A stretch of 50,965 bases of DNA from Euryarchaeota archaeon UBA136 (GCA_002506485.1 DAXQ01000076.1:1-50965), one strand, 5' to 3'. Counted from the stretch's first letter, positions 21,185 to 50,965 are shown. Notes: generated by a model from the sequence alone, not told the origin. A program made the numbers and translations.

Positions 21185-21197
21185 CTCTTTTAATAGG
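21185..21197 (+). promoter_or_regulatory. TATA-like element upstream of the nuo cluster
   Basis: CTCTTTTAATAGG is centred about 26 nt upstream of the nuoA GTG (21217). It is the only AT-rich box in the 120-bp panB/nuoA divergent spacer at a suitable distance. Confidence 0.35.
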
Positions 21198-21216: not shown

Positions 21217-21576
21217 GTGTTGGCACACGAGTATATCCCTATAGGGATTTTTGCACTTATTGCACTCACATTTCCTGTGCTGACCTTCTTTATCGGAAGG
21301 TTCTTTCGGCCTCATAATGACAATGCTCTCAAAAATTCAACTTATGAGTGTGGAGAGGTTCCTAGAGGCGAAGCTCATATTCAGTTTCATTTTCAGTACT
21401 ATATGTTTGCTATACTGTTTGTCATTTTTGATTTAGTAGTAGTTTTTCTAGTCTTGTGGGTTCAAGTATATCTTGATTTGGAGGTATCAGCTAAAGTTGT
21501 AATGTTGTTGTTTCTCCTGCTGACCTTGCTGGGTCTGTGGTACGCTTTTAGAAAAGAGGATGTAATCTGGATATGA
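21217..21576 (+). CDS. nuoA: NADH-quinone oxidoreductase subunit A
   Basis: 119 aa with 3 TM helices and the conserved YECGE loop. Confidence 0.9.
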   Translation: MLAHEYIPIGIFALIALTFPVLTFFIGRFFRPHNDNALKNSTYECGEVPRGEAHIQFHFQYYMFAILFVIFDLVVVFLVLWVQVYLDLEVSAKVVMLLFLLLTLLGLWYAFRKEDVIWI

Positions 21577-22214
21577 GTTCTAAGAAAGTACGTGGCAATC
21601 CTGGTCTTAGAAGAGGTGTGGGTTCTAAAACAACTGATTTAGACGAAATAATGGAAGACCCTCCTGCAGGAGATTGGCTTACTCTTCGTTCAGATCAACT
21701 GTTAGAATGGATAGATAACGCTGTTTACAATGTTGCTGAAACCACTGGAATGCGCGAAGTCGTCAATCGAGTAACTAGACCTATCTTCAATTATGGGCAA
21801 AGATTCTCTCCTCATCCGCTTCACTTTGGTATAATGTGTTGCGCTATTGAGATGGGTCAGGCCTCTGCACCGGACCATGATATAGACCGACTTGGTCTGG
21901 TTTACCGTTCTTCCCCAAGGCAGTGTGATGTGCTAATTGTCAATGGGCCTGTTTGTGAAAAACTGCGCCCTAAATTGAAGACACTTTATGAGCAAATGCC
22001 GGAACCCAAATGGGTTATTGCAATGGGCGAATGTGCAATATCAGGAGGTCCCTACTGGGATTCCTACTCTGTTGTAGCAGGTGCAGATACATTCATCCCT
22101 GTTGATGTATATATTCCAGGATGTCCGGTTAGACCTGAAGCTTTGATGCATGGTTTTCTGACTTTGCAAAAGAAGATCAGAGAAAAGGAACCAGGCATGT
22201 TCTTGAGACGTTAA
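21573..22214 (+). CDS. nuoB: NADH-quinone oxidoreductase subunit B (N2 cluster subunit)
   Basis: 213 aa. The N2 cluster ligands are present: tandem [14 protein letters not shown] and GCPVRPE. There is a 4-nt overlap with nuoA. Confidence 0.95.
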
Positions 22215-22216
22215 GT

Positions 22217-22696
22217 ATGGAAATCAAGGAGTTAATGCAAGAGTTATCAGCCCTTAAGGGAGTTAGCAACGCTTCAATGATTAGGGATAATGTAGTCAAA
22301 TTGGATATTGATAAGAATTCATCCAAAGAGTTTTTTACCAAATTGAGGGATGACTTTGGCTTTGAACATTGTTCATTGATAACTGCAATCGATAATCAAC
22401 CAGAATTTGAACTGGTTTATCATTTTACATCTGTAAACAAGTCCGTTACTGTTGGATCCACTGACATGTCTGTAATGATGGAGGCACATGTATTTCTTGA
22501 ACGGGATACACCTACCATAGAATCAATATCTGATTTATGGGGTGGTGCTAATTGGCATGAGAGAGAAGCTTTTGATCTGATGGGAATTTACTTTGTAGGC
22601 CATCCAGATTTGCGTCGTGTATTGTTACCAGAAGGTTTTGCTGGTCATCCGTTAAGGAAGGATTACGTGTATGAGATACACGAGGAGGAGTGGTAA
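22217..22696 (+). CDS. nuoC: NADH-quinone oxidoreductase subunit C
   Basis: 159 aa. It has the NuoC/30-kDa signature [24 protein letters not shown]. Confidence 0.9.
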
Positions 22697-23790
22697 TGGC
22701 TGAGATGTGGATTAGTATGGGCCCGCAGCATCCAATGACCCATGGTCTCTGGACATTGAAGGTCAAGGTAGATGGTGAAACAATAACTGATGCAGATCCT
22801 GAATTAGGCTATCTCCACCGTTCAGTCGAGAAAATGGGCGAACGTCGTAAATATTTTATGAATACCACTTTGACGGATCGCCTTTGTTATGCTAGTTCTA
22901 CTACTTGGACACACAACTACGTTCTTACAGTCGAAGAATTAATGAATGTTGAAGTACCTGAAAGAGCAAAATACATACGTACGATTATGCTAGAACTTCA
23001 GAGATTAGCTTCTCATTTAATGTGGGCAGGAGCCTATATGCCTGATTTAGGACATATCACTGGAGCCCTTTATTTCTGGAGAGATCGTGAATTGTTCCTG
23101 AACCTTCTGGAGGTTCCAAGTGGAAGTCGTCTTCTCTACAATTATATTCGAATTGGTGGGGTGAAAAGGGACCTGCCAGATGGTTTTGTTGAAAAAACCG
23201 AGAGGGTCTTCAAACTATTTGAAAAACGACTGGATGAATATGCTGATCTTTTTGAAAATTCTAAGATTTTTCGCATGCGCACTGAGGATGTTGGTAATTT
23301 CACTGCAGCGCAGGCCCAGAATCTTGGAATAACTGGCCCCAATATGAGAGGATGTGGGACCAAATTTGATTTGAGAAAAAATGACCCCTATGAGATTTAT
23401 GAAGAAATAGACTGGGCTATTCAAACAAGAGAGGCAGGGCCTGGCTATAGTGATTGTTTCAGCCGATATATGGTTCGTATAGATGAGATGAAGGAATCAA
23501 TTCGGATAATTCGTGATTGTTTCAAAAAGATGCCCAAGGGACCAACCTTGGCCTCAGCTATTCCTGTTCGGGCTCAGGGAGAAGCTTTCCGTAGAACAGA
23601 GGATTCTAGGGGAGAGGCTCTGATGTATGTGGTTGGTGACGGAACAGATCGTCCCTATCGGTGGAAAATCAAAAGCCCGATGTTTACCACAATTTCAGCC
23701 TGCCCTCACTATCTCAAAGGGTACAAGCTTGCAGATATTCCCGCAATCATGGGTAGTATTGATATTTGTATAGGAGAGACTGACAAATGA
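22696..23790 (+). CDS. nuoD: NADH-quinone oxidoreductase subunit D
   Basis: It has GPQHPMTHG and LGYLHRSVEKM and ends IGETDK. I prefer ATG 22696 (TAATG overlap with the nuoC stop, GAGGAGGAG SD 6-14 nt upstream) over the track's GTG at 22690. Confidence 0.95.
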   Translation: MAEMWISMGPQHPMTHGLWTLKVKVDGETITDADPELGYLHRSVEKMGERRKYFMNTTLTDRLCYASSTTWTHNYVLTVEELMNVEVPERAKYIRTIMLELQRLASHLMWAGAYMPDLGHITGALYFWRDRELFLNLLEVPSGSRLLYNYIRIGGVKRDLPDGFVEKTERVFKLFEKRLDEYADLFENSKIFRMRTEDVGNFTAAQAQNLGITGPNMRGCGTKFDLRKNDPYEIYEEIDWAIQTREAGPGYSDCFSRYMVRIDEMKESIRIIRDCFKKMPKGPTLASAIPVRAQGEAFRRTEDSRGEALMYVVGDGTDRPYRWKIKSPMFTTISACPHYLKGYKLADIPAIMGSIDICIGETDK

Positions 23791-25016
23791 CCTTATTCGA
23801 TGCATGTAGAATTATGGCTGAATGGACAGTAAAGGTTCTCATACCGGTCTTTGAGTTTCAAGAAGGTCTTTTTCCTCCTTTCAGTAATCCTGCAGGTTGG
23901 GTCGCGGATTGGTTAGCAACAGAGGGGGGGCTGGATACAATGGCATGGTTTTATGCAGTCAACATCGCTTTTATGATAGGAATGACCAATCTGATTCTGG
24001 TTATCCATCTAGAGAGAAAAGTTGCTGCTAGAATTCAAGATCGTAGAGGCCCAATGCTATCTTTTAGATCTCTTCGTGAGTTAGGCGAGGACTTATCTGG
24101 TCAGGCACCTTCCTGGAAATTTAAGAAGAATTATAGTGGTATAGGGATTTTACAGAATCTAGCTGATGGAATCAAGGCCATTACCAAGGAATTAATTGTT
24201 CCGGCCAAGGCAGATAAATTTCTATTCACTATGGGGCCTATCATATTCATATCTTCATCTGTGTTTTTATTGGCTCTATTTCCTCTGTCAGATAGATTCG
24301 CAGCCTCTTCGGCACCGGCTGGCTTGATGGTGATTATGGCCGCTTTTTCCATAGCACCAATAGGGGTTTTGACCTCAGGTTGGGCGTCCAATAACAAATA
24401 TTCCATGATTGGAGGCATGCGTTCCGCGGCTCAGTTAATGTCGTATGAGATTCCTTTGCTTTTGAGCATGGCGGGTGTGTTTCTGTTAGCAGGGTCCTTT
24501 GATCCGGTTGTAATTGTGGAACAGCAACAAGCCTCTACCTGGTTTTTTGGTTTACCAATGTGGAATTTTATTCCCCAATTCATTGGTTTTGCTGTTTTCA
24601 TGATTTGTATCTTAGCTGAAGTTGAGCGCGTTCCATTCGATTTGCCGGAAGCCGAAGCTGAATTGGTTGAAGGCTGGACAACAGAGTATAGTGGAATTCG
24701 ATATATGTTGTTCCTAGCCGCAGAATATATCAGAGGATTTGCAGGTGCCGCGGTTGCGACTATCTTGTTTTTAGGTGGCTGGGCAGGTCCTTGGCCAGTA
24801 CCTCCCGAAATCTGGTTTTTGCTTAAGGTATATCTAATTCTTTTATTTTGGATTTTTATCCGCTGGTCAGTGCCCCGCATAAGAACCGACCAGATTCTTG
24901 TTCTGGGCTGGAAAAAGTTGCTACCTTTGTCTCTGATAAATCTCCTTATCGTTATATTTATGGTTGAGATTTACCCATATTTCACAGAGATAGTTAATCT
25001 TCCGGAGGTATTCTGA
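23787..25016 (+). CDS. nuoH: NADH-quinone oxidoreductase subunit H (longer than usual, at 409 aa)
   Basis: It has ERKVAARIQDRRGP, LQNLADGIK and EAEAELVEGWTTEYSG. About 45 extra N-terminal residues are present, plus an insert between RRGP and GILQ. Confidence 0.93.
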   Translation: MTLFDACRIMAEWTVKVLIPVFEFQEGLFPPFSNPAGWVADWLATEGGLDTMAWFYAVNIAFMIGMTNLILVIHLERKVAARIQDRRGPMLSFRSLRELGEDLSGQAPSWKFKKNYSGIGILQNLADGIKAITKELIVPAKADKFLFTMGPIIFISSSVFLLALFPLSDRFAASSAPAGLMVIMAAFSIAPIGVLTSGWASNNKYSMIGGMRSAAQLMSYEIPLLLSMAGVFLLAGSFDPVVIVEQQQASTWFFGLPMWNFIPQFIGFAVFMICILAEVERVPFDLPEAEAELVEGWTTEYSGIRYMLFLAAEYIRGFAGAAVATILFLGGWAGPWPVPPEIWFLLKVYLILLFWIFIRWSVPRIRTDQILVLGWKKLLPLSLINLLIVIFMVEIYPYFTEIVNLPEVF

Positions 25017-25792
25017 TGAGTGAAAAAAGTGAACTAGGAATTATGGATATTTTCGTTAATCCAATGAAAGTAACGATGAAGCAATTTTTCAAATCAACAT
25101 TTGGAAAACCAACCACAGTAATGTATCCTTTGGAAAGAAGGGATCCACCACCAACCTACAGAGGAATGAATGCCGTAATCTGGGATCTTTGTATTGGTTG
25201 TGGGATCTGTGCCGAGGTCTGCCCTAACAGATGTTTGAAGATGAAGCCTGTTGAATTATCGGACGATGAACAAGACAGGGCGTGGTACGGTTCACATCTG
25301 GCCAAACGGAAGCATAAACCCGAAAGGCCTGCAATAAATTTCGGCCACTGTATGTTTTGTGGATTCTGTGAGGATTATTGTCCGACCGGTGCTATGACCA
25401 TGACGGATTTTTACGAATTGGCAGATACTAATCGTGAAGGATTGATTTATCCTGCCCGGTCAATGAAAGTCGACCTCGAAGATCTTCCTCAACTTCCCCT
25501 TACGAATTATATGATGGAATCTCCCGTACTGGATGTTGATCCCTGTATTGGATGTAGTAAATGTGTGGACAATTGCCCTACCAATTGTATTATCATGGAT
25601 GTAGGGCCTCAGGATAAGACGCTTAAAAGTGGCAAGGTCCGGAATGTGGAAAATCCATATTTTGACTATACTATTTGTATTGGCTGTTCGACCTGTGTCA
25701 AGGTTTGTCCAGCAGATTGCCTGCATATGGAACCAATAAGCAACTCAAGTTCAAGTGGACTGACTACTGAGGAATCCCCGACCGAGGCCTGA
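25016..25792 (+). CDS. nuoI: NADH-quinone oxidoreductase subunit I with an additional C-terminal 2x[4Fe-4S] ferredoxin domain
   Basis: 258 aa. There are four CxxCxxCxxxCP motifs: CIGCGICAEVCP, CMFCGFCEDYCP, CIGCSKCVDNCP and CIGCSTCVKVCP. The SD GGAGGT lies at 25004-25009, and the start overlaps the nuoH stop as TGATG. Confidence 0.93.
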   Translation: MSEKSELGIMDIFVNPMKVTMKQFFKSTFGKPTTVMYPLERRDPPPTYRGMNAVIWDLCIGCGICAEVCPNRCLKMKPVELSDDEQDRAWYGSHLAKRKHKPERPAINFGHCMFCGFCEDYCPTGAMTMTDFYELADTNREGLIYPARSMKVDLEDLPQLPLTNYMMESPVLDVDPCIGCSKCVDNCPTNCIIMDVGPQDKTLKSGKVRNVENPYFDYTICIGCSTCVKVCPADCLHMEPISNSSSSGLTTEESPTEA

Positions 25793-25796
25793 TAGT

Positions 25797-26060
25797 TTGG
25801 ATTTAGCGATTCTCATTTTCTGGGGTCTGGCGAGTTTAATCCTAGCTTCAGCCTGGGCCGTTGTAAATGGGAATGATATTGTTCATGCCGTTGTCTGGTT
25901 GGCAACTGTTTTCTTGTTGACAGCATGCCTATTCATTTTGGCCGACGCTGAATTCTTGGCAGTTATCCAGGTCTTGGTCTATGTGGGTGCTATTTCCGTG
26001 GTCATAATATTTGGAATCATGCTCACTAAGAGAACTCTAAAAGGTGGTGAAGATGTCTAG
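25797..26060 (+). CDS. nuoJ: NADH-quinone oxidoreductase subunit J, N-terminal part (TM1-3; nuoJ1)
   Basis: 87 aa with a TTG start. The NuoJ/ND6 core FLAVIQVLVYVGAISVVIIFGIML is present. Confidence 0.8.
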   Translation: MDLAILIFWGLASLILASAWAVVNGNDIVHAVVWLATVFLLTACLFILADAEFLAVIQVLVYVGAISVVIIFGIMLTKRTLKGGEDV

Positions 26061-26826
26061 TCGGACTATTATCTGGGTGAGGGATGCCTTAGTGATTACC
26101 TTATCGCTTTATATCGTTTTCTCAATTGCCATGGCTCCTTGGAATAATTTGAAGTCTGAGGAACCCTTGTCTATGACCTGTGAAACGGGGTGTGCTCCTG
26201 TGATAAATTACCCAGAGGATGGTTACTATCACCACAAGGATTCAATTGTGTTCGAATGGAATTCAGTCTCGGTGGGGTATCGATTTACAGTTCTAAATAG
26301 TACGGGACATGTCTTCCATGATGAAAATCTTACTGGTATTGCATCATCTACAACCAATAGATTGCCAGTCGGTGATTATACCTCATTCGTTTATTACAAG
26401 GGTATAGTCGGCTCTTTACTGGGAGATAATGAATTTCTTCTTAGTGATGAGGATCATTCTCTGGCTTCTTCTTCAAAAATTACTGTGGTCTGGGCCCCAG
26501 TTGGGATTACTTATGGAATTGAGATTCGAGAGCACAAAGCAACAGAGATACGGATTGTTCATCAAGCCGAGGACTTGGCTCAGACATCATATGAGTTCCA
26601 GGATTTTGATAATGGTAAAACTTATTCTTGGTCTGTCTATGCCGTTGATTCCATGGGTTTTGTCTCGGAGTCGTCCAATGCAAGGGAATTGAATATAGAT
26701 ACAACCAAATTTTTAGCTTATGAACTGTTCAATAATTGGGAGGTTCCTTTCATACTGTTGGGAATCTTGATGGTTGTTGCGTTACAGGCAGGCGTTTTCC
26801 TTGCCAGGGAGGAAACTAATGATTGA
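26053..26826 (+). CDS. nuoJ: NADH-quinone oxidoreductase subunit J, C-terminal part (nuoJ2) with a ~190-aa tandem Ig/Fn3-like insertion
   Basis: ATG 26053 is preceded by AGGTGGTGA (the track ORF starts at GTG 26044). There is an N-terminal TM and a C-terminal TM (WEVPFILLGILMVVALQAGVFLA, which is NuoJ TM5-like). Between them are two beta-rich repeats (IVFEWNSVSVGYRF...GDYTSFVYY and ITVVWAPVGITYGI...KTYSWSVYA). Confidence 0.65.
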   Translation: MSSRTIIWVRDALVITLSLYIVFSIAMAPWNNLKSEEPLSMTCETGCAPVINYPEDGYYHHKDSIVFEWNSVSVGYRFTVLNSTGHVFHDENLTGIASSTTNRLPVGDYTSFVYYKGIVGSLLGDNEFLLSDEDHSLASSSKITVVWAPVGITYGIEIREHKATEIRIVHQAEDLAQTSYEFQDFDNGKTYSWSVYAVDSMGFVSESSNARELNIDTTKFLAYELFNNWEVPFILLGILMVVALQAGVFLAREETND

Positions 26827-27121
26827 TCCAATTCATTTTGTGGTATTTTCTTCAATTCTGATGTTGATCGGGGCTTATGGTGTGATTCGCAACAAGAATG
26901 CAATAGTGGTCCTTATGTCTATTGAAATAATGTTGACCGCAGCAAACATCAATTTTGTTGCATTCTCCAGTTATTATCATGATCTAACTGGCCAGGTAGC
27001 GGTACTGTTTGTTACAACCATAGCCGCGGCAGAAGTGGCAATAGGTTTGGCAATACTTTTGAGCCTTTTCAAACAGAGAGACACCATAGAACTTGATTTG
27101 TTGAATACGTTGAGGTGGTAG
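26819..27121 (+). CDS. nuoK: NADH-quinone oxidoreductase subunit K
   Basis: 100 aa from ATG 26819, with SD GGGAGGAA upstream. It has 3 TM helices and the NuoK pattern GAYGVIRNKNAIVVLMSIEIMLTAAN with conserved Glu. The track's longer ORF (from 26774) overlaps nuoJ2. Confidence 0.9.
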   Translation: MIDPIHFVVFSSILMLIGAYGVIRNKNAIVVLMSIEIMLTAANINFVAFSSYYHDLTGQVAVLFVTTIAAAEVAIGLAILLSLFKQRDTIELDLLNTLRW

Positions 27122-27122
27122 A

Positions 27123-29303
27123 TTGAGCGAAAAAGACCCCGACACATCAAATATGGACTTATTGGTAACTATCTTTGGCAGTCTGGCTTTGGCACTAGGG
27201 TTACTATTTTTCTTGGTTCAGGAGGAGGATACTAGTCCAGTCAATGTTGCCTGGTTAATCCCTGTCTTTTCGATTGTTTCATTTGTTCTTATCTTGCTTT
27301 TGGGAAGTTATGATCCCAGAAGAGGCGGTTCAATAGCTGTGATAGGTGTTGGTTTTTCCTCTGTATTTTCATTGGGGGTTGCCTATGATGTCCTGATTAA
27401 TGATGTTACCCGTGGGGGATATATTGAGTCTACGAGAATCTGGTTTGGAGGCCAAACATTCGCGTTTGAATTTGGTACTTACATAGATGGTCTAGCTGGT
27501 TTGCTTCTGTTAGTCGTTGGTTTCGTTTCCTATTTGGTAGTTGTATTTTCTCTAGGGTATATGGTGAAAGAGGGTGACCGCCAAGTAAGATATTTTGCAG
27601 AGATAGCTCTATTTGTGGGCGTGATGTTAGGTTTAGTAGTTGCCAATTCATTTTTATTGATGTTTATATTTTGGGAACTAGTCGGCGTCTGTTCCTATTT
27701 ATTAATTGGATTTTGGTATGAAAAACCATCAGCGGCTTCAGCTGCGAAGAAGGCATTTATCGTTACAAGAGTGGGCGATGTATTTCTGCTTCTTGGCCTT
27801 GTAATCTTATTCAATACTTTTGGTACTCTGAGATATTCGGAGTTGTTCAGTAACCCTGAGCTTCTATCCGAAAATGCTGAGGCAGTAAAGTGGGCGACTT
27901 TGTGTATATTTGGTGGTGCCGTAGGCAAGTCGGCACAATTTCCATTGCATGTTTGGCTTCCAGATGCGATGGAAGGTCCTACTACCGTTTCAGCACTTAT
28001 TCATGCGGCAACTATGGTGAAGGCTGGCGTTTTCCTAGTTGCTCGATCATATCCTCTGATTGTTCACAGTCCTGATACTGCGATATATATTGCTGTTACG
28101 GGAGGTGTTACAGCATTCATAGCTGCTAGTATGGCTATGGTGATGTATGATATCAAGAGAGTTCTGGCCTATTCAACGATTTCTCAATTAGGGTACATGT
28201 TCCTTGGATTGGGTGCGGGTGCTTGGGCTGTCTGGCATGCAACCGAAAATGGGCTGGAAGTCCATGCGCAGGGTTACACTGCTGGTTTATTCCATTTGAT
28301 GAATCATGCGTTTTTCAAGGCATTACTATTCTTGGGTTCAGGTGCAGTGATACATGCAGTCCATACACAGGATATGAGAGAGATGGGAGGATTACGCAAG
28401 GCTATGCCAATCACTTCTACAGCTATGGGTCTTGGTGTCTTGTCTATTGCAGGATTACCTTTCTTTTCTGGATTCTGGTCAAAAGATGAAATTCTTGAGG
28501 CAGTTCACCATAATTGGGATGCTGAAGGGATTTTTGGGGCTTTGTGGTGGTTGGGATTGCTTACTGCAGCTATGACGGCTTTCTATATGACTAGATTGTG
28601 GATGATGACCTTCAGTGGCCCTCCTTCCCATGAGGTAGAAGAGGTAATTCCTTCTGACGATCATTCGGATTCAGGCAATTGGGAGATACTCAAGAAAGAA
28701 GTCAAGATACAGGCACATGAGGCTCCACGGGTCATGACCATACCTCTGATGATTTTAGCCTTTTTAGCTGTCTTTTCAGGATTCGTGGTCTTTCTTGGAG
28801 ATGGTTTTGGTTCGGTGGTCTTCTATGGCGCACATCATTCTTCAGAGGGACCTATTCAATGGGGTCTTCTTGATCATATTTTATTATCGACCTTAACTCA
28901 CTTATCGGTCCTTGTGGGTCTTACAGGAGTAATTCTTGGTTATCTCTTCTACAAGAGAGGGGACGATGGCCAGACTCCATTCTCGACGGCTTTCGTATCT
29001 GATAGCGTTGTCACAAGCAATTTGCATACATTCTTGTCAAATCGCATGTACATGGCGAGATTATTTGATTGGTTTGGTATGAGAACTTGGGATACCTTGG
29101 CCATGGTCTGTGACTGGTTTGATCGTAAGATTATTGACGGGATTGTCAATGGAATTGCTTCCATTACACAAATCTTAAGTGGAGAGGTGAGAAAGTTGAC
29201 TTCAGGTTTTACGGGACATTATGCCTCTCTTACTATAGGTGGCCTTGGTGCTTTGGTAGTAGTTACCCGTGTGGTATTTCCATTGATGGGGTGGTCGTTA
29301 TGA
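27123..29303 (+). CDS. nuoL: NADH-quinone oxidoreductase subunit L
   Basis: 726 aa with a TTG start 6 nt after GAGGTGGT. It has the antiporter-like core (WELVGVCSYLLIGFW, PLHVWLPDAMEGPTTVSALIHAATMV) and a long C-terminal extension typical of NuoL. Confidence 0.93.
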   Translation: MSEKDPDTSNMDLLVTIFGSLALALGLLFFLVQEEDTSPVNVAWLIPVFSIVSFVLILLLGSYDPRRGGSIAVIGVGFSSVFSLGVAYDVLINDVTRGGYIESTRIWFGGQTFAFEFGTYIDGLAGLLLLVVGFVSYLVVVFSLGYMVKEGDRQVRYFAEIALFVGVMLGLVVANSFLLMFIFWELVGVCSYLLIGFWYEKPSAASAAKKAFIVTRVGDVFLLLGLVILFNTFGTLRYSELFSNPELLSENAEAVKWATLCIFGGAVGKSAQFPLHVWLPDAMEGPTTVSALIHAATMVKAGVFLVARSYPLIVHSPDTAIYIAVTGGVTAFIAASMAMVMYDIKRVLAYSTISQLGYMFLGLGAGAWAVWHATENGLEVHAQGYTAGLFHLMNHAFFKALLFLGSGAVIHAVHTQDMREMGGLRKAMPITSTAMGLGVLSIAGLPFFSGFWSKDEILEAVHHNWDAEGIFGALWWLGLLTAAMTAFYMTRLWMMTFSGPPSHEVEEVIPSDDHSDSGNWEILKKEVKIQAHEAPRVMTIPLMILAFLAVFSGFVVFLGDGFGSVVFYGAHHSSEGPIQWGLLDHILLSTLTHLSVLVGLTGVILGYLFYKRGDDGQTPFSTAFVSDSVVTSNLHTFLSNRMYMARLFDWFGMRTWDTLAMVCDWFDRKIIDGIVNGIASITQILSGEVRKLTSGFTGHYASLTIGGLGALVVVTRVVFPLMGWSL

Positions 29304-31168
29304 GATGGTTCTTATTTCTCCTTCTGGTTGTTGCACTTGTTCCTGCTGCGTCAGCTGAAAATCACACAGTGATTGTTACCCAGGCTGATGATTCCAGCTC
29401 ATACTTTTTTGATCCTGAGGTATTGACGGTAAACATTGGAGATACAGTGGAATTTGTTTGGGGCAATGGTTCTCACAATGTAGCTCAGGTTTCCGATTCA
29501 GAATCAAAGACCTATGGTTCAGGGTTCTATTCAGGTGTGCCAGAAGTGGGTGGCAATTGGGTACTGCCAGCTGAGTATACAATGCAGGATGGAACTTTGT
29601 ATTACGTTTGTCAGCCTCATGCGCTGATGGGTATGAGTGGATCAATAATTGTAGGTACTGGAACTCCTCCTCTTCCTGATATTGCAATGGAATTTGGTGA
29701 CTTCCCATGGCTTTCCTATCTTCTGGTATTTCCCCTTATCGGTTCTCTTTGGATTCTTGGTTTCAGAAACAACCCCTCTGCTCCAAGGATAATTGCTCTG
29801 TTCACTACATTATTCACGCTTGGACTATCCATTATAATATTTGTAAAGGCTGGTTCAGGAAGTGGTTTCAGATTAATGGAGGAATATGTATGGGCACCTA
29901 AACTGGGAGTGTCTCTACTACTGGGAGTTGATGGTCTCAGCTCACCGATGGTTCTGTTAACGGGAATCATTACCCCTCTCGCGGTCTTATTTGCTTGGCA
30001 TGAAAAGGAAAAACCAGCCTTATTCTTTGCTTTACTATTGGTAATGCAGACGGCCCTATTCGGTGTTTTCATCACTCTGGATTATTTTGTGTTCTATATC
30101 TTCTGGGAAGTGGTGCTGATTCCAATGTTCTTTTTGATTGCTATTTGGGGTGGCGATAACAAACGATATGCTTCAATCAAGTTCATTATTTACACATTCA
30201 CTGCTTCGGTTGTGATGTTAGTTGGATTTATGGCCCTTTATTTTGAAGCGGGCGTCAATTCCTTTTCGATGATTGAAATTGCCGAGGCTAACGCAGGTTT
30301 CAACAGGGACTTCCAGATCTGGGTTTTTGCGGCATTGTTCATCGGTTTCGCGGTCAAGATACCTTCAGTTCCTTGGCATACTTGGTTACCAGATGCCCAT
30401 GTCGAGGCTCCAACTGCGGGGTCAATTCTTTTAGCTGGAGTCATGCTGAAAATGGGACTTTATGGTTTAATGCGGGCAGCAATCCCGGTTCTACCTTTAG
30501 GTGCCGAGTATTTTGTACCAATAATGGTCGTTTTAGCTATTGTTTCTATATTGTATGGAGCAGCCTTAAGTCTGGGTCAGGAGGACCTGAAAAAATTAGT
30601 AGCATATTCTAGTGTTTCCCATATGGGTGTTGCACTGTTAGGAGTTGCAACGATGACTGAGCTGGGTTTTGCCGGTGCGGTTTTTATGATGTTTGCACAT
30701 GGTATTCTTAGCCCAGCAATGTTCATGGTTGCGGGAGTAATGTTGCATCAAGTTGGCACTCGTGATATTCCAAAACTTGGAGGTCTAGCTGGCTATCAAC
30801 CTACTACTGCTGGAGTTTTTGTTGTTATTTTCTTGGGCAGTCTTGGTCTTCCAGGTATGGCTGTTTTTGTTGCAGAATTGGCAGTTTTTATTGCTTTTTT
30901 CCAGTCTCATGGTTATTGGTTGATACTTCCAATTTTTGGAATGGTTCTGACAGCGGGTTATCATTTATGGGCTTTACAGCGCTCTTTGTTTGGTCCCGAC
31001 AGTGAGCAGATAGAAATGAATCAAGTTCACGAAGCTCCATGGTATGAGTTTTATCCTTTATTGGTAATCGTTATCCTTGCCGCTTTTTTCGGTATTTTCC
31101 CAAGTTATTTGATGGATCCTATAACTGTTGCATGTTATGATATTCTGGCTTTTATGGGGGAAGTATAG
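29300..31168 (+). CDS. nuoM: cupredoxin (type-1 copper) domain fused to NADH-quinone oxidoreductase subunit M
   Basis: ATG 29300 overlaps the nuoL stop as ATGA. A signal peptide (MRWFLFLLLVVALVPAASA) is followed by a cupredoxin with ligands in GSHNV and YYVCQPHALMGM. A Pro-rich linker leads to a complete NuoM (WHTWLPDAHVEAPTAGSILLAGVMLK) with no intervening stop codon. Confidence 0.9.
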   Translation: MRWFLFLLLVVALVPAASAENHTVIVTQADDSSSYFFDPEVLTVNIGDTVEFVWGNGSHNVAQVSDSESKTYGSGFYSGVPEVGGNWVLPAEYTMQDGTLYYVCQPHALMGMSGSIIVGTGTPPLPDIAMEFGDFPWLSYLLVFPLIGSLWILGFRNNPSAPRIIALFTTLFTLGLSIIIFVKAGSGSGFRLMEEYVWAPKLGVSLLLGVDGLSSPMVLLTGIITPLAVLFAWHEKEKPALFFALLLVMQTALFGVFITLDYFVFYIFWEVVLIPMFFLIAIWGGDNKRYASIKFIIYTFTASVVMLVGFMALYFEAGVNSFSMIEIAEANAGFNRDFQIWVFAALFIGFAVKIPSVPWHTWLPDAHVEAPTAGSILLAGVMLKMGLYGLMRAAIPVLPLGAEYFVPIMVVLAIVSILYGAALSLGQEDLKKLVAYSSVSHMGVALLGVATMTELGFAGAVFMMFAHGILSPAMFMVAGVMLHQVGTRDIPKLGGLAGYQPTTAGVFVVIFLGSLGLPGMAVFVAELAVFIAFFQSHGYWLILPIFGMVLTAGYHLWALQRSLFGPDSEQIEMNQVHEAPWYEFYPLLVIVILAAFFGIFPSYLMDPITVACYDILAFMGEV

Positions 31169-32661
31169 TGGATAGTTCTCTTCTTTTCTTGCCTGAACTA
31201 TTGTTGGTAGCCAGTATCATGGCAATCCCGGCTTTGTATATTGCTACTGAGAATAACAAATCTTATTCGATTTGCGCTAATATGACTTTGGCATTGTCAT
31301 TCTTGTTGCTTATATTATTCTGGTTTTATCCGGATGAAGTTTCATTTGAAAAGAATTCGTCAGTTTATATTATTTATAGCCATTTTAAATTGGATACCTT
31401 CTCACAATTATTCAAAATAATATTTGTATTGACAGCTTTGACGGTTTCTGTTCTGAGTGGTTCTTATTTTGAGGAAGATGAGCCTCATCAGGCAGAGTAC
31501 TATACTCTACTTCTTTCTAGTACTTTAGGTATGATGTTGGTTGCTTCTGCGACTGATTTCTTGACACTTTTCTTAGGAATAGAGATATCGGCTTTCAGCA
31601 GTTATGCTATGGTTGCTTTCAGAAAACAGGATGATAAGTCTACGGAAGCAGGGGCCAAATACTTTCTGATAGGTGCTTTTTCTTCGGCACTTACACTTTA
31701 CGGAATATCCTTGCTTTATGCCCTTACTGGTTCGATTACTTTCGAAGGTATGCGTTCATTTTTTACAGGTCTTAATAATGAAGTTGTTTCCGGGAATTTT
31801 GATGAGGTCATTTTTATTTCTAGTTTGTTCATACTTGCTGGTTTAGGCTTCAAGATCGCAGTTGTTCCCTTTCACGCCTGGGCACCTGATGTGTACCAGG
31901 GCGCTCCAACTCCTGTAACGACCCTTCTTGCAGCTGGAAGTAAGGCTATGGGGTTCGTAGCCTTGTTCAGAGTATTCTTGTTCACAATGGAAGCTGTATC
32001 TGATGAGTGGAAGTTAATTCTTGGAATTATAGCTCTTGCTTCAATGACAATTGGTAATCTGGCAGCTATTACTCAGGATGATATTGGTCGGATGCTAGCT
32101 TATTCCTCAATTGCTCAGGCAGGGTACATTCTGATCGCAGTTCCTGCTCTTACCGATGACGCAGTCTCCGGGGCCATTGCCCATACCATGGTTCATGCAT
32201 TCATGAAAGGGGGAGCTTTTGTCATAGTTGCAGGAGTAGGTGCAGCCGGGTTGGGATATAGCCTGGATTCTTACAAAGGTCTGGCTGCACGTTCACAATT
32301 ATTGGCATTGTCCATGACTGTTTGTCTTTTGTCCCTAGTTGGAATCCCTCCGTTTGCCGGATTCATTAGTAAATTTCTGCTATTCTATGGGACTTTGCAA
32401 GCTGGTCTTTCGGGAGATACTTGGATTATTGCATTGGTAATTGCCGGTGTTCTGAATTCTGCACTTTCACTGTATTATTATCTTAAAGTTATTCGGTTCA
32501 TGTATCTTTATGATGCTGTCGGTTCCAAGGATATTGAGTTTAGCAATGCGGTTCGTTATATTTCGTTCCTAACTGTGCTTTTCTTGGCTATTATTCTGCC
32601 CTTGTTCTGGCAGTCCCTCTTTGAAATCTGCAAGGAGGCTACTGTAGCTCTGATGACATGA
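31168..32661 (+). CDS. nuoN: NADH-quinone oxidoreductase subunit N
   Basis: 497 aa with a GTG start overlapping the nuoM stop by 1 nt. The antiporter-like core is present (PFHAWAPDVYQGAPTPVTTLLAAGSK). Confidence 0.9.
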   Translation: MDSSLLFLPELLLVASIMAIPALYIATENNKSYSICANMTLALSFLLLILFWFYPDEVSFEKNSSVYIIYSHFKLDTFSQLFKIIFVLTALTVSVLSGSYFEEDEPHQAEYYTLLLSSTLGMMLVASATDFLTLFLGIEISAFSSYAMVAFRKQDDKSTEAGAKYFLIGAFSSALTLYGISLLYALTGSITFEGMRSFFTGLNNEVVSGNFDEVIFISSLFILAGLGFKIAVVPFHAWAPDVYQGAPTPVTTLLAAGSKAMGFVALFRVFLFTMEAVSDEWKLILGIIALASMTIGNLAAITQDDIGRMLAYSSIAQAGYILIAVPALTDDAVSGAIAHTMVHAFMKGGAFVIVAGVGAAGLGYSLDSYKGLAARSQLLALSMTVCLLSLVGIPPFAGFISKFLLFYGTLQAGLSGDTWIIALVIAGVLNSALSLYYYLKVIRFMYLYDAVGSKDIEFSNAVRYISFLTVLFLAIILPLFWQSLFEICKEATVALMT

Positions 32662-32918
32662 TTGACAAGGATAATATTCAATATAGACAATTTAGTAAAT
32701 TGTGGGCAGGGGAGACACCTAAAGGCGTCAACATCACCAAGAGAGATGTTTTCCGTTCCAAGATGAAAAATTCATGTCAGCAGGAAGGGATTGAATTTAG
32801 TGAAATAAATGCGTTTAGAATTTTCTCGGGAGAGATTAAAGAATTAGGTTCAGACACTCAGAAGGTAGGAGAGATTAAGGTAACTAAACCACCTAGAAGA
32901 CATCTAAGAGGAATTTAA
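32658..32918 (+). CDS. hypothetical soluble 86-aa protein translationally coupled to nuoN
   Basis: It overlaps the nuoN stop as ATGA and fills the whole space to the convergent gene. It is basic with no TM helix, and I recognise no family. Confidence 0.35.
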   Translation: MIDKDNIQYRQFSKLWAGETPKGVNITKRDVFRSKMKNSCQQEGIEFSEINAFRIFSGEIKELGSDTQKVGEIKVTKPPRRHLRGI

Positions 32919-33892
32919 TTTCGGTCACTTACAATTAGTTCATTTGCAAAGGATATAGGTACCTGTTCTAGTAGAATTTTGGTTGATGAATCTGGAACCT
33001 CTTCCAAAAATTTCCGGGACATTTCTTGCCATGGGGCAATCAATTCTTCAAAGATATTCTGAGCATCGCTTGTTTTCACGTTCTTTATAATTTCACCAGC
33101 ATTTCCAGTCTCTATAAATTTATCAATAGATGGTTTGTACCCGCTATAACGAGTTAATCTTGTGACTGGTAAAGTTGGTATTCCAAGGGCTAAGTCTCCT
33201 ACAGGTGTCTTGGTAATTAATGAATTCATAAGATCAAGATAGTCATCAGTTATCTGATATATAATTCCTACAGTTTCCCCGAATTTATACATTGGTAATG
33301 CCAAGTCGGTTTGAGGCGAGATTAATGCCCCTAATTCAGCAGCTGTACTGTATAGTGCTCCAGTCTTTCTTTTTATTCTATGAAGATACACAGATTCACT
33401 GTAATTTTCTTTATCTGTAAAGTCAGCAATCGCCCCTTCAGTCAAATTCCTGGCACATATTGCTAGAGATTTTCCTGTGGCTAATGAGATGGCCCCATGT
33501 AGGGACCCCGTTGCAACCATCAGATCCGCGACTAAAATGGCTGTCCTTGGGCCCAGTTCTTTCCACAATGATGGAGCCTCACGCCTAAATTTATCTCCAT
33601 CTAACCAATCATCATGTATCAAGGTTCCACAATGAATCAATTCCAAGGCCATTCCACATTCGAATGCCAAATGGGCATCGCCACCTAAACAATCGGATAC
33701 TAAACGGCAAAGTACGGGTCGTAATTGCTTTCCTTGCCCTACTCCTTTTTCTATTAGAGGTGCTATATCCTTTGATTCCTTGCTGATTTCTCTTTTCAGA
33801 TGTCTTTGGAACTCAACTCTAACTTCTTCGAAATAATCGTTTAAATTCTGCGAGACTGTCAGATTTTCCTGTAATTTTATTGTTTCTTTCAT
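32915..33892 (-). CDS. trans-polyprenyl diphosphate synthase (GGPP or longer-chain)
   Basis: 325 aa. It has the first Asp-rich motif LIHDDWLDGD and the second ITDDYLD. Confidence 0.88.
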   Translation of the reverse strand: MKETIKLQENLTVSQNLNDYFEEVRVEFQRHLKREISKESKDIAPLIEKGVGQGKQLRPVLCRLVSDCLGGDAHLAFECGMALELIHCGTLIHDDWLDGDKFRREAPSLWKELGPRTAILVADLMVATGSLHGAISLATGKSLAICARNLTEGAIADFTDKENYSESVYLHRIKRKTGALYSTAAELGALISPQTDLALPMYKFGETVGIIYQITDDYLDLMNSLITKTPVGDLALGIPTLPVTRLTRYSGYKPSIDKFIETGNAGEIIKNVKTSDAQNIFEELIAPWQEMSRKFLEEVPDSSTKILLEQVPISFANELIVSDRN

Positions 33893-33894
33893 AG

Positions 33895-35172
33895 TTAAAT
33901 GTATTCAATACCAATTATCAGTAATGTCCCAGTTAGGGCATGTATACCAATGGTTCCCCAGTTTGCACCGGCCAATTCTCGGGTATTATAGCTGTTTATT
34001 ACTTGATATGAATAATAGAGAGCCACAGGTAATCCTAGTAATGAAAGAAGGGCCCCTTCCTCTACGATATTGTATTCGAATAATGCATATATTGAGGAGA
34101 ATGCTGCAAGCATTAGGATAAGGTACCCCCAACTGGATTTTTCTAGTCCTAGAACTACAACCAAGTGATGTTTTCCTGCAATTTCGTCTGATTTGCTATC
34201 AGGAAACTGATTAATCCAAAGTATTGCTGTCGTTAGTATTCCAAATGGTATTCCAAATAGAAATGCCTCCCATGAATGTATTCCAGACATTGCATAGATA
34301 GCTCCCATAGTCATCAGTGGGCCATAATTCAAACCAATCAGTAATTCTCCAATTCCTTTACGTGCTACTAATCTTAGAGGATATCCCATATAGAAATATC
34401 CCGAAAACGCTCCCGCAAGTCCGTAGTAAAGTAATTCCACTTTATTATCAAGCATAATTACTATTCCTGATAAACCAGCTAAAGCTAGAAAAGAAGTTGC
34501 CAAACGGAAAAGTTGTTTCTCAGTTATCAATCCCAGTTCGATAGCTCTGCTGCCTCCTGAGAGTTGTAAGAAATAGTCGTTGTTGATCTGATCAGTTCCA
34601 CTGGTCCAGTCAAAATAATCATTGTATGTATTGGCAGCCAGATGTAGAAAAGATCCACCCATAAACACCAATCCAAAGGTTAACCAATCCATCTCGATAA
34701 GTCCTTTCTGAAGACCCCAGACCACGCTAGCAATTATTGGAATCCAGGTGGCACTAAGGAAAGGCAATCTTGTTATGGCAACGATTGAGATAAATCGGGT
34801 GAGCAAGGATGTTTTGGGCATAGTGTCCATGGGAGAAACATTCTTCAGTTCTTTTGTGCGCCCACAGTAACCGATATGCATTCCGTTTTTCATTGTTGCC
34901 GTACATGTAAATTCAGCAGCAAATTGCGTTCCATCTTTTCTTATGAAGGTGGTCTTTGTTGAATATCCTTCCCTATTCTTTCTTGCTTCTTTTAACCACT
35001 TAGCAACATGGCCTAGCACCACCATACCAGGTGAGAATAGAGAAACTCTCTTCTTACCTATGATTTCATTGGCCGTGTACCCAAACATTATTTCGGCGCT
35101 TTTGTTGAAGGTTTCTATTCTACCCTCTATATCACAGGTTATTACACTGGTTACGTCATCTGATTCTGACAT
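33895..35172 (-). CDS. PAS domain fused to a UbiA-superfamily prenyltransferase (MenA-like, 1,4-dihydroxy-2-naphthoate polyprenyltransferase)
   Basis: The N-terminal about 110 aa are PAS-like (ITCDIEGRIETFNKSAEIMFGYTANEIIGKKRVSLFSP...KDGTQF). They are followed by about 8 TM helices with NTYNDYFDWTSGTD (the MenA-type NxxxDxxxD region). The track ORF starts at TTG 35226. I prefer ATG 35170-35172 (MSESDD...), which lies downstream of a TATA-like TTTATATAC. Confidence 0.8.
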   Translation of the reverse strand: MSESDDVTSVITCDIEGRIETFNKSAEIMFGYTANEIIGKKRVSLFSPGMVVLGHVAKWLKEARKNREGYSTKTTFIRKDGTQFAAEFTCTATMKNGMHIGYCGRTKELKNVSPMDTMPKTSLLTRFISIVAITRLPFLSATWIPIIASVVWGLQKGLIEMDWLTFGLVFMGGSFLHLAANTYNDYFDWTSGTDQINNDYFLQLSGGSRAIELGLITEKQLFRLATSFLALAGLSGIVIMLDNKVELLYYGLAGAFSGYFYMGYPLRLVARKGIGELLIGLNYGPLMTMGAIYAMSGIHSWEAFLFGIPFGILTTAILWINQFPDSKSDEIAGKHHLVVVLGLEKSSWGYLILMLAAFSSIYALFEYNIVEEGALLSLLGLPVALYYSYQVINSYNTRELAGANWGTIGIHALTGTLLIIGIEYI

Positions 35173-35251
35173 TAGGTACCTTTTAATTTCCTTATTCAAC
35201 TTCATTAGGTATAGTATATAAAACAATCATTATTATTGCCCAATTCAATGA

Positions 35252-50848: not shown

Positions 50849-50965
50849 AGGAGGTGATCCATCCGCAGGTTCCCCTACGGATACCTTGTTACGACTTAAC
50901 CCTCCTCGCTGAACCCAGATTCGAGCGTGTCAGAAGACAAACCCTCGTCCAGACCCAACTAAGGT
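50849..50965 (-). rRNA. rrs: 16S rRNA, 3'-terminal 117 nt (the gene continues beyond the window)
   Basis: The reverse complement ends ...AAGTCGTAACAAGGTATCCGTAGGGGAACCTGCGGATGGATCACCTCCT. This is the universal helix-45 region and anti-Shine-Dalgarno tail. Confidence 0.95.

Follow-up and report, generated by a model that had tools for sequence, protein, structure and literature searches.

The 50,965-nt stretch of DNA from Euryarchaeota archaeon UBA136 (hereafter the window) carries, at 21217-32918 on the plus strand, a nuo operon of 13 tightly packed open reading frames (ORFs), in which nuoA-B-C-D-H-I-J1-J2-K-L-M-N, identified by Pfam and NCBIfam profiles, are followed by a coupled 86-aa ORF (orf86). 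Judged from its sequence, the encoded enzyme is the standard complex I-like enzyme of uncultured Marine Group III (MGIII) archaea (class Poseidoniia), a quinone reductase that pumps protons and has 11 subunits but no NuoEFG. Three of its features are specific to this clade: a cupredoxin on NuoM, a pair of fibronectin type III (FnIII) domains on NuoJ2 and the 86-aa protein. The account we favor, and hold to be somewhat likelier right than wrong, is that of an MGIII complex I with an electron-entry domain on NuoI, a copper carrier tethered to NuoM, an FnIII pair on the outer face and orf86 as an accessory subunit. A preliminary description made from the sequence had read the operon as having an electron-entry wire and an exterior redox or docking module. 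This reading appears plausible on the sequence evidence, the exterior redox module being supported by the invariance of its four copper ligands in 72 sequences and by the halocyanin-like character of its free relatives.

The N-terminus of NuoM consisted of a signal peptide, a plastocyanin/halocyanin-like type-1 copper domain and a Pro-rich linker in front of the antiporter-like core (Table 1), the junction of the cupredoxin with the first transmembrane segment (TM1) reading …IIVGTGTPPLPDIAMEFGDFPW…. The exported copper domain of the preliminary description was borne out by a Pfam Copper-bind match above threshold and by an alignment with plastocyanin 1j5c (E 2e-6) that covered all four ligands; pseudoazurin structures in the PDB were matched too. 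The ligands His59, Cys104, His107, and Met112 (Cys-x2-His-x4-Met) were invariant in 72 NuoM homologues, in which the hydrophobic stretch and the "A-E" of the signal peptide were also conserved, despite identities to the window's copy of 45-91% over the rest of the domain. On its sequence, the N-terminal domain is a type-1 blue copper protein with predicted copper binding and redox activity. Its outward orientation is deduced from the known topology of NuoM and from the signal peptide found by eye.

The closest free cupredoxins were small proteins with a halocyanin-like architecture, namely a signal peptide, a cupredoxin, an acidic linker and a C-terminal anchor. P0233 was 65% and P0242, which ends in a PGF-CTERM-like tail, 55% identical to the NuoM domain. 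The contigs of these proteins and of P0258, at just 1.4-2.6 kb, were too short to show linkage to oxidase genes. In Marine Group II (MGII), transcription of the free halocyanin and plastocyanin genes is high, and their products are counted among the components of electron transport (PMC9723583). The MGIII representative was the only fusion to NuoM among the 150 best of 1794 cupredoxin-domain matches, in a survey that leaves room for independent fusions with very divergent cupredoxins. Ten long matches (500-900 aa hits) were checked and proved to be mostly Bacteroidota poly-cupredoxins secreted by the type IX secretion system (T9SS). The closest relatives of the NuoM domain also included four giants of 1450-3670 aa (P0230, P0232, P0239, P0240), in which 8-12 cupredoxin repeats are arranged in tandem.

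The cupredoxin part of nuoM (29300-29711), as the preliminary description had missed, is a hypervariable recombining cassette that is mosaic between near-identical strains. In one close relative (P0003, locus L089), the NuoM core was 99% identical to that of the window and the cupredoxin 53%. At the DNA level, the identity of this locus was 83-100% on both flanks and 53-77% at 29308-29711, and the change was abrupt both at the start codon and at TM1. In a second relative (L001, 9848-11872 compared), the 11.7-kb operon was 83-99% identical at the nucleotide level, save for the cupredoxin segment at 57-74%; the minimum of 83% reflected a mild dip in the NuoJ2 ectodomain. Identities of domain and core were incongruent in both directions, with 38 pairs of sequences having a core of >=90% and a cupredoxin of <60%, and 11 pairs having a core of <80% and a cupredoxin of >=70%. 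This behavior suits an exposed, autonomous module and could reflect adjustment to partners that vary, or selection for diversity in a surface protein. In one metagenome-assembled genome, a scaffold gap of 100 N (L023:9898-9997) lay exactly on the cupredoxin segment, as might be expected if differences between strains disrupt assembly at this hotspot. Such a variable cassette in an otherwise highly conserved operon is an unusual population-genetic signal.

NuoJ was split into J1, which holds TM1-3, and J2, which holds TM4 and TM5 with an ectodomain of about 180 residues between them. Residues 210-252 of J2 matched positions 103-145 of the Oxidored_q3 profile, and the NCBIfam NuoJ C-terminus was matched as well. 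The preliminary description had proposed a tandem immunoglobulin (Ig)- or Fn3-like insertion here, and structure prediction agreed: an AlphaFold2 model built on 40 homologues (predicted local distance difference test score, pLDDT, 78) was all-beta over residues 50-215 between helices 3-27 and 230-256, and tandem FnIII pairs led the Foldseek matches (E 3e-5 to 5e-4, probability ~1.0), nearly all of the top 50 being multi-domain FnIII or cytokine-receptor ectodomains. The TM-scores of these matches were low (0.2-0.3) because of the transmembrane helices and the inter-domain angle. With the Pfam fn3 profile (PF00041), the insert scored 22.6 bits, under the 25-bit threshold, and a few homologues carry a precomputed PF00041 match. 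A nearly invariant Cys pair on the N-terminal side of the first Fn3 domain (C43, C47) fits an extracytoplasmic location of the insert. The TM4-5 loop of NuoJ/ND6 faces outward, and by analogy the Fn3 pair would lie on the outer (P) side. The insert was confined to 93 MGIII-type protein clusters, named "hypothetical protein" at best, and J2 was of the same length and architecture across most of them. Between close relatives (P0139-P0150), the ectodomain differed by indels of 8-31 aa, and some variants of 385-387 aa (P0143, P0146) may possess a third domain.

NuoI (258 aa) contained four CxxCxxCxxxCP motifs, at residues 59, 112, 177, and 221. Residues 25-150 aligned to NuoI/Nqo9/MBS-N, with MBS subunit N and Nqo9 as PDB matches, and residues 168-249 matched the polyferredoxin MvhB, FwdF, PsaC, RnfB, and PorD. 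Pfam recognized four Fer4 stretches, and the PorD_KorD model scored 67.5 bits against a cut-off of 60. The two further motifs and these ferredoxin-family matches establish the added 2x[4Fe-4S] domain that had been described for NuoI. Both motifs of the extension were strictly kept in all MGIII loci. A search with a word index yielded 15 NuoI homologues, two of them distant matches that led to the archaeal operons L086 and L087, which likewise are without NuoEFG and encode a four-cluster NuoI (284-305 aa).

No NuoE, NuoF, NuoG or FpoF was found by Pfam annotation among the genes of the 51-kb window, in agreement with the preliminary description, and no NuoEFG in the 10-kb flanks of related loci; the genes flanking the operon in the window were housekeeping only. 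Archaeal enzymes of 11 subunits normally lack NuoEFG (PMC3144371, PMC3750248), as that description had also held. An identity as F420H2 dehydrogenase (Fpo) was rejected, with FpoF missing from the window and the FpoI and FpoH equivalogs scoring far below their cut-offs (88.7 vs 180 bits for NuoI with the FpoI model, and 247 vs 475 bits for FpoH).

The strongest argument for the NuoI extension as an electron-entry adaptor comes from a nuo operon of a sister lineage (L028:3911-6070, plus strand, contig CAYLMJ010000015.1), because there a flavoprotein NAD(P)H module sits inside the same domain. The L028 NuoI of ~720 aa comprised in order the core, the third cluster motif, Fer4_20 and Pyr_redox_2, and the fourth cluster motif, the insertion being in frame. 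The inserted part was a GltD/NfnB-like FAD/NAD(P)H module (PRK12771, 463 bits). The Nuo subunits of L028 were 43-77% identical to those of the window, and an orf86 homologue was present and the cupredoxin absent; its J2 ORF measured ~390 aa from stop to stop. As read from the sequence, L028 would encode a complex I-like enzyme with an integral NAD(P)H dehydrogenase that is not NuoEFG. Flavoproteins related to gltD are reported to take the place of the NuoI subunit in the mbx-like operons of Thermotoga and proteobacteria (PMC4758237). One metagenome scan yielded no second NuoI-GltD fusion, only a GltD-like gene (L090) on a contig without Nuo genes, and when a stand-alone GltD-like partner was sought in the window and in every locus retrieved, by tblastn with the L028 insert, L028 alone was matched.

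orf86 is clearly a real conserved gene by its sequence, as had been suspected from its coupling to nuoN through an ATGA overlap. The protein was exactly 86 aa long in the MGIII genomes examined, had no transmembrane segment and contained 24 invariant columns including PPRR-LR (with a nearly invariant H). Its hidden Markov model (HMM) matched solely the ORF directly 3' of nuoN, in MGIII and L028. No Pfam or NCBIfam family was matched, a profile of 25 homologues found nothing among the PDB sequences at E <= 10, and a single-sequence AlphaFold2 model of low confidence (three helices and a disordered tail, pLDDT 66) gave no Foldseek match with E < 3. No similarity to ferredoxin-docking subunits of the NdhS/NdhV/NdhO type was detectable, though NDH-1 structures are in the PDB library. 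The protein is plausibly an accessory subunit and could conceivably pair with the acidic NuoI extension (pI 4.3).

These features were found throughout the clade. NuoM homologues with both Copper-bind and Proton_antipo_M formed >70 protein clusters at 62-95% identity, one of them from "Marine Group III euryarchaeote CG-Epi2". Scanning one genome per GTDB species gave ~29 MGIII-type loci (labels MGIII, Poseidoniia and similar), and the extensions of NuoB, NuoH and NuoI, the J2 insert, the NuoM cupredoxin and orf86 were present in every such locus that covered the region (~25 species genomes); the sole apparent absence of the cupredoxin was the scaffold gap of L023. In further MGIII-type metagenome loci, the NuoI extension was present in 78/78 and the cupredoxin in 42/42 of those with the 5' end of nuoM. 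Four independent assemblies, among them Tara metagenomes and GCA_030743535.1, had operons with the same gene order, sizes and domain annotation, and the exact NuoN sequence was indexed in 188 blocks of the sequence collection.

The co-occurrence of the additions had been called unusual. The full set was confirmed, but it is the standard architecture of the whole MGIII clade, and absent NuoEFG, split NuoJ, four-cluster NuoI and a NuoH of ~400 aa are not special among archaeal 11-subunit operons. The enlarged NuoH of the earlier description, although indeed 409 aa long, is thus not distinctive (410 aa in L086, 375 aa in L087 and ~500 aa in MGII). Neither the NuoM cupredoxin nor the J2 Fn3 pair was found in L086, L087 or MGII. 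In the full-text literature, we found no description of a NuoM cupredoxin, a NuoJ Fn3 insertion, the 86-aa protein or the MGIII complex I; the main MGIII genome paper (ISME J 2017) lay outside the search. The architecture is standard in its lineage but not one for which we found a description.

In the mechanism that we propose, the NuoI extension would lengthen the chain of clusters at the cytoplasmic tip, in the place that the N-module takes in 14-subunit enzymes, and would act as a socket for electrons from reduced ferredoxin or from a flavoprotein encoded by a separate gene. Menaquinone is the probable acceptor, because genes for a MenA-like prenyltransferase and a polyprenyl synthase adjoin the operon. 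On the other side of the membrane, the cupredoxin would be a one-electron carrier tethered to complex I by the ~15-residue linker. Because the membrane arm of complex I contains, to our knowledge, no cofactors, the cupredoxin would stand outside the enzyme's own electron path and serve other respiratory partners. Most likely it would relay electrons from a quinol oxidase to a terminal oxidase (both assumed partners) in a probably cytochrome-c-poor chain, and complex I would therefore be adjacent to those enzymes. The FnIII pair in the TM4-TM5 loop may be a strut or a docking surface on the outer face, and orf86, co-translated with NuoN, may be an accessory subunit on the cytoplasmic side.

Several results weigh against this mechanism. 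The cupredoxin is hypervariable and recombines between strains, which is unexpected for docking on conserved partners and resembles diversifying surface proteins; it is the chief finding that a tethered carrier would not have predicted. The flavoprotein fusion of L028 is known from a single locus, no gene for a donor flavoprotein or ferredoxin was found close to the operon, whether in the window or among the MGIII loci, and orf86 has no detectable homologue of known function.

A bolder form of the proposal is a hard-wired respirasome, in which the tethered copper carrier is braced on the outside by the NuoJ2 Fn3 pair and the NuoI extension, with orf86 and the NuoB extension, forms an iron-sulfur socket with interchangeable input. 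The socket would be free in MGIII, and in the sister lineage a GltD-type NAD(P)H dehydrogenase would occupy it. Strains would swap the cupredoxin cassette, perhaps thereby tuning partner specificity or potential, or escaping viruses that use the cassette as a receptor. We regard this form as speculative and rather unlikely.

The same standing, a minority chance well short of even, is given to the explanation that only the anchor was swapped. NuoM would then merely hold a halocyanin-type carrier at the membrane, with no supercomplex or functional link, and the Fn3 pair would be an unrelated decoration. The free relatives are anchored in the membrane by C-terminal tails, so that an anchor alone suffices; the membrane arm offers no cofactor for an exchange of electrons; and the swapping of alleles suggests a functionally autonomous module. 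However, the fusion is fixed, being found in all 42 informative metagenome loci and in every genome with sequence at this position. The short tether also restricts the reach of the domain to the immediate surroundings of NuoM, and its stoichiometry is locked to that of complex I, which is odd for a carrier that roams freely.

It appears improbable that the cupredoxin and the Fn3 domains are structural or adhesive surface modules (in contact with the S-layer or envelope, or a viral decoy or target) that take no part in respiratory electron transfer and in which any copper is structural. Fn3 and Ig domains typify surface proteins, and the nearest multi-domain relatives of the cupredoxin are secreted poly-cupredoxins, including the T9SS proteins of Bacteroidota. 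In the comparison with L001, moreover, the cupredoxin was the sole strongly divergent stretch and was mosaic, and the J2 ectodomain showed a milder dip, indels and variable length. Against this, the four type-1 ligands were invariant in every allele type, which indicates selection for a redox-active copper site, and the free members of the subfamily look halocyanin-type, like the MGII halocyanins that are treated as electron-transport components (PMC9723583).

We likewise give little credence to the possibility that the NuoI extension is not an input socket but a structural cap for the missing N-module, or an output or branch point, for example in reverse flow to ferredoxin. This would agree with the lack of a donor gene linked to the operon and with MGII, which manages with a two-cluster NuoI bearing a different insert. 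However, both additional cluster motifs are strictly kept, L028 wires the same domain to an NAD(P)H flavoprotein module, and NuoI is the electron-receiving subunit in all complex I-type enzymes known to us. Finally, the artefact explanation (frameshifts, read-through gene calls or chimeric assemblies) has practically negligible probability and was rejected, despite one public annotation that starts NuoM at an internal Met (493 aa, P0075) and the scaffold gap of L023, since the ORFs are uninterrupted in the >70 clusters and the four independent assemblies, no stop codon separates the cupredoxin from TM1, the internal Met varies (P0065, P0072, and P0076 have Leu or lack the residue), J2 keeps its length and architecture across most clusters, and the additions are conserved clade-wide.

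The core of the enzyme looks intact and functional from its sequence, with N2, N6a, N6b, the quinone-site His and Tyr, and the antiporter Lys and Glu residues all in place. In NuoD, the quinone-site motifs QHPMTHG and LCYA aligned to QHPSMHG and WDY of NdhH in the PDB alignment, and NiFeSe_Hases matches scored under the cut-off. In the NuoM core, FWEVVLIP, AVKIP..PWHTWLPDAH, LKMGLYG, and FVAELAV aligned to NdhD1 and NuoM, which showed that the TM5 Glu, TM7 Lys, TM8 Lys, and TM12 Glu were kept. NuoB carried a basic N-terminal extension of ~45-55 aa (21573-21737), the NCBIfam NuoB match beginning at residue 56. This extension, omitted from the preliminary description, was MGIII-specific: conserved at 73-92% in MGIII, weakly in L028, and absent in MGII. 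NuoH had an N-terminal extension of ~50-60 aa, conserved at 57-95% in MGIII, and an extra insert of ~35 aa in the region of the TM1-2 loop.

The operon encodes the complete set of 11 core subunits (A-D and H-N), with Pfam and NCBIfam scores above threshold; the exception was J2, weakly recognized through its C-terminal transmembrane segment. The profiles identified all twelve Nuo polypeptides, and the thirteen co-directional ORFs were confirmed where the preliminary description had placed them, the Nuo subunits other than J2 matching Pfam well above threshold. That description had the ORFs chained by overlaps of 1-8 nt, which is true of nine junctions (4, 1, 4, 1, 8, 8, 4, 1, and 4 nt), the other three being gaps of 2, 4, and 1 nt, with start codons as chosen by gene callers in four public assemblies. 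Of its GGAGG/GGTGA-type Shine-Dalgarno sites at almost every internal start, GGAGG/GGTGG-like motifs 5' of most internal starts were seen. The TATA-like box TTTTAATA probably serves as an archaeal promoter for an operon mRNA with a short leader or none.

Table 1. Position and annotation of the features of the nuo operon in the window.
Feature	Description	Coordinates	Strand	Evidence and remarks
TATA-like box	TTTTAATA	21188..21195	+	22-29 nt upstream of nuoA GTG; read from sequence
nuoA	119 aa	21217..21576	+	Pfam Oxidored_q4, E 2e-25; GTG start
nuoB	213 aa	21573..22214	+	Pfam Oxidored_q6; N2-cluster Cys CC89-90, C153, C184; N-terminal extension
nuoC	159 aa	22217..22696	+	Pfam Complex1_30kDa, E 6e-39
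nuoD	364 aa from ATG	22696..23790	+	Pfam Complex1_49kDa, E 4e-84; alternative start GTG at 22690
nuoH	409 aa	23787..25016	+	Pfam NADHdh, residues 61-389 vs profile positions 6-297
nuoI core	Residues 1-149, canonical N6a/N6b 2x[4Fe-4S]	25016..25462	+	TIGR01971, 138 bits; motifs 59, 112
nuoI C-terminal extension	Residues 150-258, 2x[4Fe-4S] ferredoxin domain	25463..25792	+	Motifs 177, 221; acidic, isoelectric point (pI) 4.3
nuoJ1	87 aa, NuoJ TM1-3	25797..26060	+	Pfam Oxidored_q3, profile positions 1-62
nuoJ2	257 aa; TM4 (~3-27), ectodomain, TM5 (~230-256)	26053..26826	+	Oxidored_q3, NCBIfam, AlphaFold2
nuoJ2 insertion	Residues ~33-215 (~180); Cys pair, then two FnIII/Ig-like beta-sandwich domains	26149..26697	+	
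nuoK	100 aa from ATG	26819..27121	+	Pfam Oxidored_q2, E 4e-27; gene-caller start
nuoL	726 aa from TTG or 716 aa from ATG at 27153	27123..29303	+	Pfam Proton_antipo_N and Proton_antipo_M
nuoM signal peptide	Residues 1-19, MRWFLFLLLVVALVPAASA|E, AxA cleavage motif	29300..29356	+	Identified by eye
nuoM type-1 copper domain	Plastocyanin/halocyanin-like	29357..29659	+	Pfam Copper-bind PF00127, 31.1 vs threshold 21.2 bits
nuoM linker	Pro-rich, GTGTPPLPDIAMEFGD, cupredoxin to TM1	29660..29710	+	~15 residues; read from sequence
nuoM core	Antiporter-like	29711..31168	+	TIGR01972, 499 bits, residues 138-615; aligned to NdhD1 and NuoM structures
nuoN	497 aa	31168..32661	+	Pfam Proton_antipo_M, E 8e-71
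orf86	86 aa, soluble, basic, pI 9.8	32658..32918	+	ATGA overlap with nuoN, translationally coupled

Two genes on the minus strand (33895-35205 and 32915-33892) converged on the end of the operon. One encoded a UbiA-family prenyltransferase with a fused N-terminal PAS domain, most like MenA (1,4-dihydroxy-2-naphthoate polyprenyltransferase) and below the equivalog cut-off, and the other a polyprenyl diphosphate synthase, whose 3' end overlapped that of orf86 by 4 nt. A polyprenyl synthase gene was also located 3' of the nuo operon in L087. The two genes suggest, by their predicted products, a link to the supply of menaquinone and possibly to its regulation. Elsewhere in the window, a bacterial-type homodimeric pyruvate dehydrogenase E1 (AceE, 1336 bits) was encoded at 6202-8862 (minus strand), which in this archaeal genome would place NADH-producing pyruvate oxidation beside a complex I without an NADH module. 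The 3' end of an archaeal small-subunit rRNA gene (50849-50965, minus strand) was cut by the edge of the window. In another assembly of the same region (L085), a BNR/Kelch beta-propeller protein of 1975 aa was encoded beyond the shared genes.

MGIII archaea occur widely in the water column of the ocean, so that the enzyme is the one with which a group of broad distribution respires, not the curiosity of one genome. The electron source of the widespread complex I without NuoEFG is a long-standing question, and a dedicated two-cluster entry domain would point to a modular input socket. A second such question, the organization of probably cytochrome-c-poor archaeal chains, would be made concrete by the 1:1 fusion, through a 15-residue tether, of a copper carrier to a subunit that pumps protons, a fusion which predicts a fixed neighborhood of complexes I, III and IV. 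We know of no complex I reported to have a redox cofactor on the outer (P-side) face of its membrane arm; the cupredoxin, if the proposal is true, would be the first.

Compared with known systems, the operon shares its gene set and order, the lack of NuoEFG, an intact Q-module and the antiporter-like subunits with the 11-subunit complex I-like enzymes of archaea and bacteria (PMC3144371), to which it adds the P-side cupredoxin, the Fn3 pair, the 86-aa protein and the NuoB extension, none of which was found in L086, L087 or MGII. L086 and L087, which are unrelated archaeal operons, have a split NuoJ with a J2 of 80-103 aa, the long NuoI described above, a NuoH of 375-410 aa and a plain NuoM of 503-507 aa. 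MGII, the sister order, has the same nuo gene order as MGIII, with a NuoH of ~500 aa, a short J2 and neither cupredoxin nor orf86. The MGII NuoI (320-455 aa) contains two cluster motifs with an insert of ~110 aa between them and a Lys/Ala-rich tail; among the MGII loci L030-L079 (for example L038:5527-6891 and L039:4003-5610), the NuoI of MGIIa adds a C-terminal domain that looks helix-hairpin-helix-like.

Photosynthetic NDH-1, a ferredoxin:plastoquinone oxidoreductase, is likewise without NuoEFG, and small soluble accessory subunits assist the entry of its electrons at NdhI. It gave the best PDB sequence matches for NuoD (NdhH, E 1e-87) and the NuoM core (NdhD1, E 2e-92), above bacterial and mitochondrial complex I. 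Unlike the MGIII enzyme, however, NDH-1 has only two clusters in NdhI and no ectodomains, and no similarity of orf86 to any PDB chain was detected. Fpo/Fqo of methanogens and Archaeoglobus are also archaeal complex I homologues with a non-NuoEFG input module, but the window is without FpoF and its acceptor is probably menaquinone, not methanophenazine. In mbx-like complexes (PMC4758237), a NuoI-type iron-sulfur subunit can couple to a GltD-type NAD(P)(H) module, as in L028; the window has a ferredoxin domain and no flavoprotein, whereas L028 is Nuo-type with the module inserted within the ferredoxin domain.

With halocyanins and other anchored blue copper proteins of Halobacteria and MGII, the NuoM domain shares the plastocyanin fold, the His-Cys-His-Met ligands, the signal peptide and the hold on the outer face, and it is 55-65% identical to its free anchored homologues. 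It differs from them in being fused to the N-terminus of a 14-TM complex I subunit instead of being held by a C-terminal tail, and in its 1:1 stoichiometry. Tethered carriers are known in the di-haem cytochrome cc of the actinobacterial CIII2CIV2 supercomplex and in the anchored cytochrome c552 of the Paracoccus I-III-IV respirasome. The concept would be the same in MGIII, but here the metal is copper and the host is complex I, which is neither donor nor acceptor for the carrier.

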